Under the pieces are notes generated by a model. The model saw nothing but the letters and a program-made list of their open reading frames with translations, was not told the DNA's origin and ran no database searches. Positions 52,310 through 64,000 of a stretch of DNA of 64,000 nucleotides are shown here, piece by piece. Location: IMG/VR virus record IMGVR_UViG_3300032050_000048, positions 8,476-72,475 of that record, one strand, 5' to 3'. Both the position numbers and the translations under genes were made by a program. Numbering within the stretch: position 1 is the first letter of the stretch; each line of letters begins with the position of its first letter. Source of the DNA: a virus. Taxonomy: Duplodnaviria; Heunggongvirae; Uroviricota; Caudoviricetes.

Positions 52310-52347
52310 AACCCCCTTTTATAAAAAAATTGGGGGTTTTGTTTTTT
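52310..52347 (+). terminator. Rho-independent terminator
   Basis: Hairpin aaaacccccttttataaaaaaattgggggtttt followed by a T-run. Confidence 0.6.
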
Positions 52348-54466
52348 GGGGAATCAAAAACATAACTTAAAGTATATTTATCAAATAAAAACTATGCCCA
52401 ACTTAAATAAAAGAATAGTTGACTTACCATTAATTTTAGCAAATGATATTTCATCACTTGATGTTCTACCAATAGTTAATGTTGAAGCAGATGTAACAAA
52501 CAAAGTAACTATTGGTGAGTTAGCCAATTACTTTGATTCAAGCGATACTTTTTTAACCGGGGTAACATATAATACTTTAGAGGATAATCTAACATTATCT
52601 TTAAACAACGGAACAAGTTTATCTGCCGATATTCCAAGATATAATAGATGGTTTATTCCATCGGGACAAACATATATAATTGAAAATAATTTCCAAAGTT
52701 TTATATATGGTGATTTAATCGTTGAGGGTACATTGGACTTAGAACCTGAAGGCCAACTAATTGTATTAAATGGTAATATAATTTTAAGTGGCGGGTCCAT
52801 TATAGGTTCCGGAACAACATATTTAATTGATTTACCAGAGAATGATATTTATGTAACTTCAGGAACTTTTAATCCCGGAACAAAATTAATTACTTTTTCT
52901 GGAAATACTGGATTTGTTCCATTTAATGTTGATTTAAGTTCGTTATCAACAGATAATTTTTATTTAACTGCCGGAACATATAATTCATTAAGTGAAAGTA
53001 TTGATTTTGTTGGTAATGATTTGGTGACTAACTTTTCTGTTGACGTTAGTCAATTACTTGACGATACAAACACCTACACAACTGGTGCAACACTTAATGG
53101 TACAATTGTTGAGTTTAATAGGAATGATTTGACAAATGCATATTCTGTTGATTTAGCACCACTTAAATTTACCGGAAACACAATATCTGAATGTATTGCG
53201 GATATATACGTATCAAATTTACACGCCTGTTCACCATTAAATATTAATCCAGGCGACGAAGGTAATGTTAATTTTGGCTCAACAAACCAAGTATCAATAG
53301 AATTACCATCTGGAAAAGTAGTCACACAAGATTTGCAAATTGTAAATGGGGCTAATAGTGGATATGTTTTAACATCAGATGTGAGTGGTAACGCTAGTTG
53401 GCAAGCCCCGTTTAATACTAATTTATATAATTCTGATGGCACATTAACTGGTAGTAGAACTGTTACTATGAATGGAAATAATTTAAGTTTCCAATCAAAT
53501 GGTTCTGGTGCAAACATAATTAATTTTTATGGTGAAGGTAATACTTCAGCGTCAAGAACTTATTTTGAAATTGCTCAAAGAAAAAATGGGGCGTTTTCAA
53601 CATCAGTATTTTTCTCAACGTTTTCACCAGACTATACCGCAAGTTTATGGGGTTCTTATTTTGCTGGTAGTTCAATGCTATCTTCATATCACGAAAATGC
53701 CGGTGGCGGTAATGGTAATTTATATTTTGACCTTTCTCACTATTCTGGAACCTTAAGTGGTAAACACTTTGCTTGGCATGCGGCACCAGTATTAACAGCT
53801 AGAGGTCTCAATACCGAAATGATGCGCCTTGAGGTTATTAGTGATGGTAATGGTTATTTAGGTCTTGGGACTAAAGGAGTTCCTCAACAAAGACTACACG
53901 TAAGTGGAAATACAAGAGTTGATGGTAATTTATATGTTAATGGGAACTCAATATTTTCTGGTCAAACAACAGACGTTGTTAAAATTTATGGCTCCGGAAC
54001 GACAACACCAATATTTACAATTCAAGGATCAAGTGGTGAGTTATTTAGTGTTACAGATAGTTTAATTGGTTCATTATTTAGTGTTAACGATATTTCTGGT
54101 CTACCAGTACTTGAAGCCTTTAGTGATAATACGATATTAATGGGTAGTTACCAAGCACCATCACTAAATACTACAAGTAAAAAGACCGCAAACGCCGGAA
54201 CTACAACAATATACTCAATTCCTACAAGCGCATACACCGGAGCTTTCTTTGATTACACAGTTAATGATGGTACCAATTTGAGAGCCGGAAACATTATGTC
54301 AATATGGAGTGGAACTTCAGTTAATTTTACAGAAACAACAACAACCGATTTTGGAAACACAAGTGGTATAACATTTAATATGGTTGTGAGTAGTGGTAAT
54401 GCGATATTAGAGACATCAGCCGTAACATCAAGCTGGGTTGTTAAAACAATAATAAGAAGTATATAA
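52346..54466 (+). CDS. Tail-fibre-like protein
   Basis: 706 aa. Motif ANSGYVLTSDVSGNASWQ is shared with CDS 58470..59849. Ser/Thr/Gly/Asn-rich beta composition. Confidence 0.5.
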   Translation: MGNQKHNLKYIYQIKTMPNLNKRIVDLPLILANDISSLDVLPIVNVEADVTNKVTIGELANYFDSSDTFLTGVTYNTLEDNLTLSLNNGTSLSADIPRYNRWFIPSGQTYIIENNFQSFIYGDLIVEGTLDLEPEGQLIVLNGNIILSGGSIIGSGTTYLIDLPENDIYVTSGTFNPGTKLITFSGNTGFVPFNVDLSSLSTDNFYLTAGTYNSLSESIDFVGNDLVTNFSVDVSQLLDDTNTYTTGATLNGTIVEFNRNDLTNAYSVDLAPLKFTGNTISECIADIYVSNLHACSPLNINPGDEGNVNFGSTNQVSIELPSGKVVTQDLQIVNGANSGYVLTSDVSGNASWQAPFNTNLYNSDGTLTGSRTVTMNGNNLSFQSNGSGANIINFYGEGNTSASRTYFEIAQRKNGAFSTSVFFSTFSPDYTASLWGSYFAGSSMLSSYHENAGGGNGNLYFDLSHYSGTLSGKHFAWHAAPVLTARGLNTEMMRLEVISDGNGYLGLGTKGVPQQRLHVSGNTRVDGNLYVNGNSIFSGQTTDVVKIYGSGTTTPIFTIQGSSGELFSVTDSLIGSLFSVNDISGLPVLEAFSDNTILMGSYQAPSLNTTSKKTANAGTTTIYSIPTSAYTGAFFDYTVNDGTNLRAGNIMSIWSGTSVNFTETTTTDFGNTSGITFNMVVSSGNAILETSAVTSSWVVKTIIRSI

Positions 54467-63600: not shown

Positions 63601-64000
63601 GATAGTTTCTATGATAACTTTATTGGGGAACCTAGTATAAGTAGTTCTTTCTATAGAAATGATATTGGTAATGATTTTAGAGAGAATATTGTATACTACG
63701 AATTCCAAAATAACGAAATTGGAAATCAATTTAATAATAACATTTGTGGTAATGAATTCTTAAAAAATACCATAGGTAATGGATTCAATAACAACAAAGT
63801 AAGTTATTTTGATACCAATAAACTTGGCAATGGTGTTAATGGTAATATTTTTAATTACGATGTCACCAATAACTTTATTGGTAATTATTTTGGGAATAAT
63901 AGATTGTCCTCAATGGATAGTAATTCTATTTTGAGTGATTTTAGTAATAATAGATTTGGTGATGGATATGGTTTCTATGACTTTTCAGATATTACAACTA
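60649..64000 (+). CDS. Giant beta-helix-type repeat protein (3' partial; more than 1100 aa; not in ORF track because no stop occurs in the window)
   Basis: Hand-translated open frame from ATG 60649 to the window end. Dozens of about 8-residue repeats of the form N-x-I-G-(N/D)-x-F (for example FRDNVIGDNFENNTIKNYFYYNSIGNNFESNIIGDYFGN). Confidence 0.55.
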   Translation, partial: MGKLILKNNGLETQFVNGVDFTTLTPQTDVYYVGVDSLTGTFDKLNPNGTIIDLEAGGGGGGITGATEVTYSDLVNRISTNTLTASTFYLITDFQTCYDQPDFDYDGNPITSGNYKQGPVEPILVLATSENTISEIAYQPTYPKDRILYDWTYSTTEVTTNPAFGRISERIDEFNNRTDYDHRNILFKRYRLFTIRQQQPLNGSIELQSDGTVLGTNTYFTSLSVGDVIYMDGNSRFHEIISITDNTTMAVSGDTINSFGCCSNFYMGIEENNGSGYFSYKQTNVKTYDYLEYTTFGDAISNDYVKNTYIGNYANNYQNVGPGTFLLANNVFLEGQYESNKFGDYCYNNTFGTDNQNNTWGDYCYENVSTNDIDECTFGYYFNNNLINSNMESSKVGNQFANNKILGENSTNFRNNIIGDNFSNNTIYSDFYENDILYRFQDNIIGDFGNLDNFEFYRNYISNDFLNNTIRQTFQNNRVGTNYQNNQINGEFIGNTILNGFNNNQTGYNFRVNNIGNGFNNNIVNDNFFNNSTDYYFYNNKISNDFIYNDIQTYFQSNVPENQTLFGWYDLSTVSTRTYDVFNNIVGNGNLGNRLLGKEFVMRIISTSQYFIIKFTQWTQNNNGGGFQYERTEIDSAGNTIGSTILFTKRNYTNDIDVIVPGVAGVGITRGNNGGIYNSFSEGGWNSSVSPSDTEWNSIYTEPNSGERFGYNKIGNLFQNNIIGSDFGYGGGNEQGNVINDKFQDNLIGQFMYNNVIGNEFRDNVIGDNFENNTIKNYFYYNSIGNNFESNIIGDYFGNFNSDSTPPVTNTIFNDFKFNKIGNYFGNDTNYPGATNPGGNGGNVINTGFQYNVVGDDIIYNLIDSDFTNNKIGNSFWFNSFNTLSILNNFGDYFVGNAGIGGFPNPINGVFTSNNVGNFMAFNIIDNDFEDNQIGHYFGNGGSGTENTIYSEFRSNKIGNYFGFDGPTSGGNTIYSPFYNNLIGDSFYDNFIGEPSISSSFYRNDIGNDFRENIVYYEFQNNEIGNQFNNNICGNEFLKNTIGNGFNNNKVSYFDTNKLGNGVNGNIFNYDVTNNFIGNYFGNNRLSSMDSNSILSDFSNNRFGDGYGFYDFSDITT

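Follow-up and report, generated by a model that had tools for sequence, protein, structure and literature searches.

A six-gene LamG-like array in a putative host-adsorption block of an uncultured freshwater phage

Why would a phage encode six different versions of a lectin-like domain side by side, each in a gene of its own, among genes for fibre-like proteins? The preliminary description of the window (the whole 64,000-nt stretch of DNA analysed) saw in this region interchangeable host-recognition tips, possibly a substrate for host-range switching. To evaluate this, we examined the gene content of the locus, the family and predicted fold of the LamG-like proteins, the variation of the array among related viral contigs, and its likeness to known systems.

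Gene content of the array and fold of its products

The LamG-like genes encode proteins of 233–249 aa, and throughout the array all genes lie on the + strand, with a start codon for each ORF (Table 1). Against the Pfam family Laminin_G_3 (PF13385), all six proteins scored 49.5–66.9 bits (E 7e-13 to 3e-18), above the gathering score of 27.6 bits, which bears out the initial count of six tandem paralogues. The reported coupling by ATGA overlaps was likewise seen, at pairs 1/2, 2/3 and 4/5. The six LamG genes are, however, not the whole content of the array: a 96-aa ORF, unmentioned in the preliminary description, lies within it and overlaps paralogue 4 by 1 nt.

Table 1 Features of the LamG array and its surroundings (window coordinates)
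Feature	Coordinates	Strand	Details
Fibre-like protein	52346..54466	+	706 aa from TTG 52346; gene calls in identical contigs 706 or 690 aa
LamG paralogue 1	54468..55184	+	238 aa; PF13385 E 6.7e-13
LamG paralogue 2	55181..55882	+	233 aa; PF13385 E 6.9e-17; ATGA overlap on both sides
LamG paralogue 3	55879..56628	+	249 aa; PF13385 E 2.9e-18
Conserved 96-aa protein without known function (s96), inside array	56634..56924	+	
LamG paralogue 4	56924..57643	+	239 aa; PF13385 E 6e-18
LamG paralogue 5	57640..58371	+	243 aa; PF13385 E 8.4e-16
Relic 3' end of a lost LamG gene	58384..58426	+	reads ILQNYNTLRSRFN, then stop
Fibre-like protein	58470..59849	+	459 aa; motif GYVLTSDASGNGTW at residue 351
LamG paralogue 6, most divergent	59854..60579	+	241 aa; PF13385 E 3.9e-14
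TATAAATA, T4-late-promoter-like box	60631..60638	+	11 nt upstream of giant ORF
Giant fibre-like repeat protein, cut by window end	60649..64000	+	1338 aa in identical contigs

Paralogue 1 shares 25–49% identity with the other paralogues, paralogue 2 being its nearest relative (48%) and paralogue 6 standing at 25%. An AlphaFold2 (AF2) monomer model of paralogue 2 (233 residues; pLDDT 93.4, pTM 0.90), the one LamG protein modelled, displayed ~15 strands in a jelly-roll beta-sandwich followed by a C-terminal helix (residues 217–231). When this model was searched with Foldseek, 457 PDB structures matched at E ≤ 0.001, the top matches with TM scores of 0.70–0.76. Together with the Pfam matches, this supports the lectin/jelly-roll fold proposed at the outset. 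The top matches were to the lectin-like HCN domain of clostridial (botulinum-type) neurotoxins (~230–240 aligned columns). Among solved structures, this domain fits the entire chain best, down to the terminal helix, which in the toxins connects it to the domain that follows. Sequence identity to HCN is only 14–19%, the locus has no toxin context, and membership in the corresponding family PF07953 (clostridial neurotoxin receptor-binding N-terminal domain) was rejected, as paralogue 2 alone reached 16 bits (E 0.01), below the gathering score of 23.8. The similarity lies at the level of the fold. HCN acts as a spacer and, to our knowledge, has not itself been established as a site of sugar binding. 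Searching PDB sequences with a profile returned an S-layer-domain protein and sialidase, pappalysin and pentraxin domains. Overall, the six genes are best explained as members of a branch of the concanavalin-A-like/LamG fold that is specific to phages.

The conserved ends and variable middles first noticed in this window are a real pattern that extends beyond it. Across 183 unique stand-alone LamG homologues from 80 viral contigs, the commonest residue reached a frequency of 0.6–0.8 at residues 1–67 and 211–233, compared to 0.2–0.4 at residues 70–210. In the AF2 model, the conserved N-terminal part forms beta-strands of the sandwich. The C-terminal motif, initially taken for a constant anchor peptide, is instead a confidently modelled helix of the domain itself, and it is kept in the tandem-fused domains of S-PM2 p176 and S-SKS1 gp05.

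The placement of the array in a fibre-like gene block also appears to hold: it lies among fibre-like ORFs, and a Peptidase_G2 (intramolecular-chaperone) spike-like protein, the large terminase and a T4-type portal follow downstream. The proposed common fibre motif is present in the 706-aa protein as GANSGYVLTSDVSGNASWQ and in the 459-aa protein as GATSGYVLTSDASGNGTWQ (77% nucleotide identity over 57 nt), and the former also carries GYVLTSDVSGNASW at residue 339. The start of the 706-aa gene is ambiguous, as an in-frame ATG 16 codons downstream of the TTG would give 690 aa. Its N-terminal part differs among phages and its C-terminal ~200 aa (about 53837–54466) are conserved: in most of 80 loci, the gene directly upstream of the LamG arrays shares 50–72% identity with its last 170–210 aa, and residues 545–607 match an annotated tail fiber of Flavobacterium phage vB_FspM_immuto. 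The 459-aa protein is conserved over its N-terminal ~30 aa, and its first 23–52 aa are 52–71% identical in the gene after the LamG arrays at about 15 of the 80 related loci. Its 80-aa C-terminal domain recurs in other phages, with 53–58% identity to ORFs from Leptolyngbya phage Lbo-JY46 and from an uncultured huge phage. In Pfam, PHROG, NCBIfam and PDB sequence searches, the fibre-like proteins showed no detectable relationship to any characterised tail fibre; the 706-aa protein matched nothing in these four resources, and the 459-aa protein matched no family.

The giant ORF, whose full length was obtained from an identical contig (L003), encodes nonapeptide N-N-x-I-x-x-x-F-x repeats and two copies of a ~90-aa globular insert. 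Autocorrelation peaked at 9, 18 and 27 residues, which corrects the ~8-residue period given in the preliminary description and does not fit its "pentapeptide-like" label (period 9, not 5; no Pfam match at E ≤ 1). No Pfam, PHROG or NCBIfam family matched this protein. Its residues 69–192 are similar to a portion of an annotated tail fiber protein from Clostridium phage phiCT453A and to Sphingomonas phage PAU gp99. The TATAAATA box upstream is a putative promoter: it occurs 35 times in the window against 15.4 expected, a count reached in none of 100 shuffles.

Exchange of LamG genes among related phages

Next, we compared the array with those of related contigs. Relative to one of them (L013), the slots were 43%, 83.5% (paralogue 3), 32%, 96% (paralogue 5) and 68% (paralogue 6, against the gene at the same position) identical, and among related phages in general, single LamG genes at 77–96% identity stand beside slots at 32–43%. 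The 96% amino acid identity of paralogue 5 is accompanied by a dS of 0.22, while its flanking genes display dS values of 0.75–1.04; this four-fold difference between neighbors indicates a recently exchanged block. Orthologues of paralogue 4 were found at 82%, 77% and 59% identity (L026, L091 and L093), each directly after or near a 96-aa gene. Those of paralogue 2 form a graded series from 88% to 56%, the closest lying in a differently composed array (L091). Altogether, the 183 unique LamG proteins fall into 158 sequence types (55% identity), recombined in different orders.

Several features point to how these exchanges may have occurred. Nucleotide homology blocks begin at 55835 and 57596, in each case within the conserved 3' motif of the preceding gene, and the spacer after paralogue 5 holds a relic that is a sixth copy of this conserved 3' repeat family (D2/D9). 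The sharing of single LamG genes and the position of these block starts support homologous recombination as the means of cassette exchange, with the conserved gene ends serving, at the DNA level, as homology patches through which whole LamG genes pass between related phages. In this evolutionary sense, the earlier suggestion of a substrate for recombination holds. The combination expected of phage receptor-binding or adhesin proteins, mosaic and horizontally exchanged sequence with conserved attachment parts, is present here.

The individual LamG types are stable: within them, dN/dS ratios were 0.08–0.27, the variable core evolved no faster than the ends, and each type is under purifying selection. 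The low ratios in the core would fit stable binding specificities and a purely structural role equally well.

Related cassettes and comparable systems

The array (3 + 2 + 1 LamG genes) is an enlarged form of a cassette that is widespread in aquatic phages and that at least 80 IMG/VR contigs carry. In its usual order, the cassette consists of a fibre gene with the conserved ~200-aa C-terminal domain, LamG genes, a gene for an 85–96 aa protein, another LamG gene, and a fibre gene with the conserved N-terminus. LamG arrays range from 1 to 9 genes across loci, most commonly 3. Of the 80 loci, 60 have the 96-aa gene and 53 the conserved C-terminal sequence of the fibre. The 85–96 aa protein, about 70–83% identical across loci, is the most conserved product of the cassette. 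Broader searches returned at least 7308 sequence clusters for this ~90-aa partner, 2773 protein clusters for relatives of a single LamG paralogue, and at least 444 IMG/VR stretches matching the cassette. None of the LamG or ~90-aa clusters of the cassette bears a functional name, and our literature search found no paper on this gene arrangement.

LamG domains also occur fused, both to one another (double-LamG genes in L015 and L091; 4–5 tandem domains in the 960-aa S-SKS1 gp05) and at the C-terminus of fibre-like proteins of 1041 and 1170 aa (L076 and L081). Their presence within such large virion or fibre-like proteins provides a "Rosetta-stone" argument for a fibre role of the stand-alone forms. 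Among cultured phages, the T4-like cyanophage S-PM2 (block p175–p177, especially p176) and S-SKS1 (gp05, gp07 and gp08) encode the same LamG sub-family, 30–35% identical over the full domain and sharing the N-terminal motif IVxxGLxLxLDA...SGxGNxGTLxNG and the terminal QNFNALRTRFGL; their tandem domains are, however, fused into polypeptides of 470–1058 aa, unlike the six separate genes here. S-SKS1 encodes a ~90-aa partner (58% identical) directly after gp05; in S-PM2, a tblastn search revealed no counterpart of the 96-aa protein. The C-terminus of p176, itself annotated as a virion structural protein, is a full LamG domain with both conserved ends. The products of the S-PM2 block are regarded as potential adhesin components, and during a co-evolution experiment an allele of one gene of the block (numbered S-PM2d175 in that paper) rose to fixation in a sweep (PMC9910659).

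The closest cultured relative is Flavobacterium phage immuto, in whose fibre module (gp052 to gp047) a tail-fiber-like gene is followed by two LamG "structural proteins" (37% identical), a 458-aa protein that contains LamG, a 112-aa counterpart of the 96-aa protein, and a tail fiber sharing a 60-aa motif of the 706-aa protein. Immuto thus differs in having two stand-alone LamG proteins and one 458-aa LamG-containing protein instead of six stand-alone ones, and in lacking a giant nonapeptide-repeat protein nearby. For both immuto and S-PM2, the label "structural protein" comes from database annotation, and our literature search found no experimental work on the immuto fibre-module genes. In both immuto and S-SKS1, neighbors of the LamG genes are annotated as tail fiber or baseplate wedge.

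Multiple receptor-binding proteins on a single particle are known from phages CBA120 (tailspikes TSP1–4), PhiK64-1 of Klebsiella and G7C (gp63.1/gp66), and lactococcal phage Tuc2009 has an accessory carbohydrate-binding baseplate protein, BppA. The logic proposed for the array is the same: different binding modules with conserved docking parts, mounted together, encoded by neighboring genes and exchanged between phages. The modules of these phages are, however, beta-helix depolymerases or have other folds, and they dock through defined N-terminal domains, whereas the array encodes single ~235-aa LamG domains whose conserved parts lie within the fold, together with a highly conserved ~90-aa partner. 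A further parallel is the Streptomyces umbrella toxin, in which six diversified lectins, all combining a conserved part for docking with a variable part for binding, are carried on one particle as a form of bet hedging (PMC13274773). In umbrella particles, the UmbA lectins sit on an UmbB adaptor, and one UmbA lectin family is Laminin_G_3, as in the array. There is no scaffold homology between the two systems, UmbA docks through a trypsin-like domain, and the umbrella is a bacterial toxin, not a virus; binding is experimentally established for UmbA, and is a prediction for the LamG array.

Proposed role of the LamG proteins

Taken together, these observations suggest, with a probability that we put at roughly 0.6, that the region is the host-adsorption (fibre or adhesin) block of its phage, a large uncultured freshwater virus whose portal is of the T4 type, and that the LamG proteins are its exchanged binding modules. 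Most likely, they help the virus to attach to its host. Several different LamG proteins would be built side by side into the virion fibre apparatus, a location suggested for the stand-alone proteins by the homologous domain in S-PM2 p176. The variable middle of each would provide a distinct binding surface for host-surface polymers, with sugar binding predicted from the fold family. The conserved first ~65 residues and last helix would hold the fold together and contact neighboring subunits, a fibre end or the ~90-aa protein; these docking partners are guesses, since models were built for monomers only.

An unlikely alternative is that the LamG proteins serve the fibre network as structural blocks or connectors (shaft beads or a hinge, similar to T4 gp11, gp35 and gp36) instead of receptor binders, in which case their diversity would reflect co-adaptation with diverse fibres and not different ligands. 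The bead-like row of domains in S-SKS1 gp05, the spacer function of HCN with its same kind of terminal helix to the next domain, the low dN/dS throughout, and the hinge-like position of the array, which has a conserved fibre C-terminus on one side and a conserved fibre N-terminus on the other, are all consistent with this. On the other hand, the number of types, the copy number of 1–9 and gene-by-gene replacement among close relatives are typical of host-contact parts, and load-bearing connectors usually co-vary with their partners. In addition, paralogue 1 appears to be interrupted in two otherwise identical metagenome contigs by deletions of 128 and 139 bp, which suggests that single units are dispensable.

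We consider it quite improbable that the LamG proteins act outside the adsorption apparatus, whether as a Hoc-like capsid decoration sticking to environmental polymers or in the infected cell (superinfection exclusion or envelope modification). The domains do match PHROG 8510, a virion structural protein in the "head and packaging" category, the terminase and portal genes come directly after the block, and the tail location is a prediction. However, at most of the 80 loci, fibre-like genes with conserved junction domains directly flank the arrays. LamG domains also form the C-terminus of fibre-like proteins of more than 1000 aa and are joined to proteins of the putative S-PM2 adhesin block, and the translations, judged by eye, reveal no obvious signal peptide at the LamG N-termini.

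Finally, programmed diversification, as a diversity-generating retroelement (DGR) target or an invertible, shufflon-like segment switching the expressed tip, is highly improbable and appears refuted for this window as far as sequence analysis reaches, the layout of repeated genes with conserved ends and variable middles being a superficial likeness. A YxDD motif scan of all ORFs in the window found no reverse transcriptase, its sole match being a sigma-factor-like 152-aa ORF, and no reverse transcriptase family matched in Pfam among 19 ORFs (those in or just upstream of the region and the ten largest elsewhere). No template/variable repeat pair was detected, direct repeats ≥60 nt in the region being paralogue ends only (60–81% identity). 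Six contigs from other samples were 99.95–100% identical over the aligned sequence, i.e., displayed no hypervariability, and the dN/dS ratios also speak against a DGR target. For a switch of the Mu Gin/G-segment type, the window lacks inverted repeats ≥60 nt (only short, weak ones occur inside the region), no invertase was seen among the part of the window ORFs scanned, and the uniform orientation and separate start codons do not fit. A DGR, for which the preliminary description proposed a search, finds no counterpart here, and exchange proceeds by ordinary homologous recombination over evolutionary time.

A more far-reaching reading is speculative and rather unlikely: LamG proteins, the very highly conserved ~90-aa protein and the conserved fibre end could form a combinatorial lectin "bouquet", with several, possibly varying subsets of up to six modules per virion held in one constant socket and the ~90-aa protein as universal adaptor. 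If true, that protein would represent a new, very widespread family of adsorption proteins in aquatic phages, and the bouquet would parallel, in a phage, the umbrella particles with their bet hedging by multiple lectins. How the abundant uncultured phages of aquatic habitats recognise their hosts is poorly understood. As immuto and S-SKS1 are cultured and carry smaller cassettes, a host-binding role of the LamG proteins is directly testable. With LamG genes exchanged as whole units, host range would evolve through the replacement of cassettes, and if these proteins are host-binding parts, the conserved gene ends would give a simple rule for host-range re-assortment in nature, as well as an engineering handle in which the variable core is swapped and the ends are kept.

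The LamG-like genes and their fold

All six LamG-like ORFs listed in the preliminary description are present on one strand and encode proteins of 233–249 aa, and most of them are, as it had proposed, coupled by ATGA overlaps (paralogues 1/2, 2/3, and 4/5). Its gene list nevertheless missed a 96-aa ORF lying within the array. Every paralogue exceeded the curated threshold for Pfam PF13385 (Laminin_G_3, concanavalin A-like lectin/glucanase superfamily; E-values 7e-13 to 3e-18), and paralogues 2–6 are 25–49% identical to paralogue 1. The two fibre-like proteins that bracket LamG genes (706 aa, starting at 52346, and 459 aa, starting at 58470) do share a fibre motif, a 19-residue stretch G-A-x-S-G-Y-V-L-T-S-D-x-S-G-N-x-x-W-Q with 77% nucleotide identity over 57 nt. 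Searches against Pfam, PHROGs, NCBIfam, and PDB sequences returned no match for the 706-aa, 459-aa, and 96-aa proteins, the giant 1338-aa repeat protein, or the upstream ORFs.

Open reading frames of the LamG-like array
Feature	Position	Strand
LamG paralogue 1	54468-55184	+
LamG paralogue 2	55181-55882	+
LamG paralogue 3	55879-56628	+
96-aa ORF inside LamG array	56634-56924	
LamG paralogue 4	56924-57643	+
LamG paralogue 5	57640-58371	+
LamG paralogue 6	59854-60579	+

The lectin-like fold anticipated for these proteins was borne out both by the PF13385 matches and by a model of paralogue 2 based on an 89-sequence alignment (pLDDT 93.4, pTM 0.90), in which a beta-sandwich leads into a helix (residues 217–231) that corresponds to the LQNYNTLKTRFG motif. 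Its best solved structural matches were the lectin-like HCN sub-domains of botulinum-type neurotoxins (TM 0.70–0.76, measured over ~230–240 aligned columns for a model of 233 residues), and its best matches among predicted viral structures were ‘concanavalin A-like’ proteins of uncultured Caudovirales, M4QRQ0 of cyanophage S-SKS1, and p176 of cyanophage S-PM2. Across 183 unique stand-alone proteins, residues 1–67 and 211–233 are strongly conserved and residues 70–210 are not, in line with the conserved ends and variable middle originally described. When a profile was searched against PDB sequences, only profile positions ~53–221 (FDGxNDY to IYNRaLSxxE) aligned, the partners being an S-layer-domain protein, a sialidase, and pappalysin and pentraxin domains. 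By these alignments, both motifs are generic features of the superfamily, and the first ~50 and last ~12 residues are specific to the phage sub-family.

In the structural model, both ends belong to one compact domain. The C-terminus had been interpreted as an anchor peptide, but the model shows it, with high confidence, as a helix of the domain itself, and it is retained in fused cyanophage domains. S-PM2 p176 (1058 aa) contains two consecutive LamG domains, the protein terminating in ...IYNRALTAQEVLQNFNALRTRFGL and the preceding domain ending in ...QVFQNYNATR, which continues directly into the next N-terminal motif. S-SKS1 encodes 4–5 LamG domains per chain in gp05 and two each in gp07 and gp08, and other contigs include double-LamG genes or a C-terminal LamG domain in 1041-aa and 1170-aa proteins. 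The modelled helix and these fused forms thus show that the conserved ends are domain boundaries, with the helix as a linker in fusions. Since some phages encode LamG domains as fusions and others as separate proteins, the domains probably lie side by side in one assembly, following a ‘Rosetta stone’ logic.

A widespread cassette and its mosaic exchange

In IMG/VR, the paralogue alignment picked up related stretches in a number of at least 444; 80 loci were retrieved and compared. Based on HMM counts, these 80 loci include tandem arrays of 1–9 stand-alone LamG genes, most commonly three, for which the usual layout is two LamG genes, a ~270-bp gap, and one LamG gene. The gap contains a homologue of the 96-aa ORF, found in 60 of the 80 loci and far more conserved (72–83% identity for the best homologues, about 52% for the weakest) than the LamG genes, which are mostly 30–40% identical among themselves. 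Upstream of the arrays, a gene with variable N-terminal parts and length (361–2677 aa) ends in a ~170–210-aa domain that shares 50–72% identity with the 706-aa protein's C-terminus, and the downstream gene often opens with ~25–50 residues resembling the N-terminus of the 459-aa protein. The array in the window is an enlarged form of this cassette, with three LamG genes, the 96-aa gene, two LamG genes, a fibre gene, and one LamG gene. The same cassette is found in the cultured Flavobacterium phage immuto (fibre-like gp052, LamG gp051 and gp050, LamG-containing gp049, small gp048, and fibre gp047), with Synechococcus phage S-SKS1 as a second cultured carrier. In the protein database, the 96-aa family comprises at least 7308 clusters, all of them unnamed and lacking a Pfam domain. 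Among 185,579 species genomes, the gene was detected in only four contigs, all belonging to metagenome-assembled genomes and two of them binned with Bacteroidota; these are probably mis-binned phage DNA, and no firm host can be derived from them.

We also observed a ~60-aa motif (IFTIQGSSGELFSVTDSLIGSLFSVNDISGLPVLEAFSDNT) at 53978–54166, i.e., residues 545–607 of the 706-aa protein, in the conserved C-terminal domain of array-preceding fibres. This motif recurs near the N-terminus of post-array fibre genes in immuto (gp047) and in loci L021, L057, L064, L068–70, and L078, with further sites in L001 (15115–16851) and other loci, and may represent a common junction element.

LamG genes undergo mosaic exchange at their conserved ends. 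The search for array variation among related phages, suggested in the preliminary description, revealed LamG types recombined in differing sets across loci: the 183 LamG proteins form 158 types at 55% identity, and the common types occur in differing combinations. Compared slot by slot with the window, locus L013 displayed identities of 43%, 83.5%, (96-aa gene, 78%), 32%, 96%, and 68%, and its synonymous divergence was 0.22 for paralogue 5, 0.90 for paralogue 3, 0.75 for the 96-aa gene, and 1.04 for paralogue 6. In another locus, L091, an unrelated double-LamG gene is flanked by orthologues of paralogue 2 (88%) and paralogue 4 (77%), and the giant-protein homologue is located on the opposite side of the fibre gene. 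Nucleotide homology blocks start at 55835 and 57596, in each case within the conserved 3' motif of the gene before, and junctions within the window, which reach 81% identity over 114 nt, are more alike than the genes. A relic LamG 3' end (ILQNYNTLRSRFN*; last 13 codons and stop, 58384–58426, + strand) is present in the spacer that follows paralogue 5 and is the footprint of a past deletion or recombination.

Recent tandem duplication was ruled out as the origin of the array, since only paralogues 1 and 2 are mutually closest (48%). The nearest relatives of paralogues 3–6 are found in other phages at 68–96% identity, so the array is an assembly of old lineages. Programmed diversification fared no better. 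The suggested check for a DGR near the array was negative, as the 64-kb window contains no ORF with a reverse-transcriptase-like motif and no template/variable repeat pair, and the population is clonal, with contigs from other samples 99.95–100% identical over aligned sequence. An inversion switch was likewise rejected, given the lack of inverted repeats (≥60 nt) in the window and the presence of all array genes on the same strand, each as an ORF that has a start codon of its own. Nor was there any sign of ongoing positive selection on the variable core: dN/dS within each LamG type is 0.08–0.27, the core does not evolve faster than the ends, and each type is under purifying selection.

The sole population-level differences were deletions of 128 bp (54374–54501) and 139 bp (54706–54844) in the otherwise identical contigs L002 and L004, with junctions devoid of microhomology. 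The former cuts the fibre gene short and joins it, out of frame, to paralogue 1, and the latter splits paralogue 1; these may be real variants or assembly errors.

The giant repeat protein and the phage genome

The last ORF begins at 60649 and runs past the window end, reaching its full length of 1338 aa in identical contigs (10796–14812 in L003). Its repeat, first estimated at ~8 residues, has a period of nine (N-N-x-I-x-x-x-F-x; autocorrelation peaks at 9, 18, and 27); the protein, which has no Pfam match, is therefore not pentapeptide-like as had been considered. A ~90-aa globular insert is present in it twice, at residues 615 and 1155 (consensus FT(Q/K)WTQ..NGGGF.Y.R...IDVIVPGV...GGIYN...SSVSP..T.WNS), neither copy with a family match. 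Beyond the window end, identical contigs encode, after this protein, a 138-aa ORF, a 634-aa protein, the large terminase, and a T4-type portal. The 634-aa protein carries a Peptidase_G2 intramolecular-chaperone domain, which is typical of spikes and fibres.

The window is AT-rich (26–41% G+C), includes 17 tRNA genes clustered at 27159–34137 (+), and is enriched in T4-late-promoter-like TATAAATA boxes (35 observed vs 15 expected); promoter and terminator scans gave counts not above those of shuffled sequence. Contigs of several JGI and ENA samples carry its DNA at ≥99.95% identity over aligned sequence, and megablast of the 11.6-kb region described here against 50,697 phage records gave no match to cultured phage DNA. 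The genome evidence and the absence of such a match indicate an uncultured large tailed phage, with the LamG genes in its late structural region.

Several other features were observed in the window. Immediately upstream of the fibre block, 47963–51007 (+) encodes two low-complexity proteins without family match, one acidic (499 aa; rich in proline, glutamate, and aspartate) and one lysine-rich (389 aa), the latter with a 116-nt internal direct repeat at 50579–50814. A 681-aa ClpB/Hsp104-type double AAA+ ATPase (AAA_2, AAA_lid_9, ClpB_D2-small), to our knowledge unusual for a phage, is encoded at 41787–43832 (-), on the strand opposite to most genes. Other ORFs encode a 550-aa protein with a family-2 glycosyltransferase domain (24449–26101, +), a 261-aa protein matching a PHROG peptidase family (40988–41773, +), and a 514-aa protein (18622–20166) with an 18-nt tandem repeat coding for (GGGGQQ)n and (GGGGNQ)n (19285–19482, +). 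The 152-aa ORF at 111–569 (+) includes a sigma-70 region-4-like stretch (YYFDDLTHDEIAKKL) and is possibly a phage sigma factor.

A putative role in adsorption

Databases already annotate LamG-fold domains in the structural proteins of phages, and mosaicism of fibre modules is described in textbooks. In the literature collection searched for LamG in phages and cyanophages, we found no description of split, tandem, stand-alone arrays, of a conserved ~90-aa partner gene, or of conserved fibre junction domains.

The gene context, the annotation of S-PM2 p176 as a virion structural protein, and the S-PM2 adhesin block suggest that LamG proteins belong to the adsorption apparatus of the virion. The p176 gene block is regarded as coding for potential adhesin components, and for one of its genes, numbered S-PM2d175 by the authors, an allele swept to fixation during experimental co-evolution (PMC9910659). 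The main alternative is that LamG proteins act as structural beads or connectors rather than as binders. For an adsorption role, a useful functional analogue, although not a relative, would be the Streptomyces umbrella toxin particles, in which six diversified lectins are mounted on a conserved adaptor (PMC13274773), binding by the LamG proteins being putative. As adsorption components, the LamG proteins would bind different host-surface polymers through their variable cores, and the constant contacts would be made by the 96-aa protein together with the conserved ends of the LamG proteins and of the fibres.
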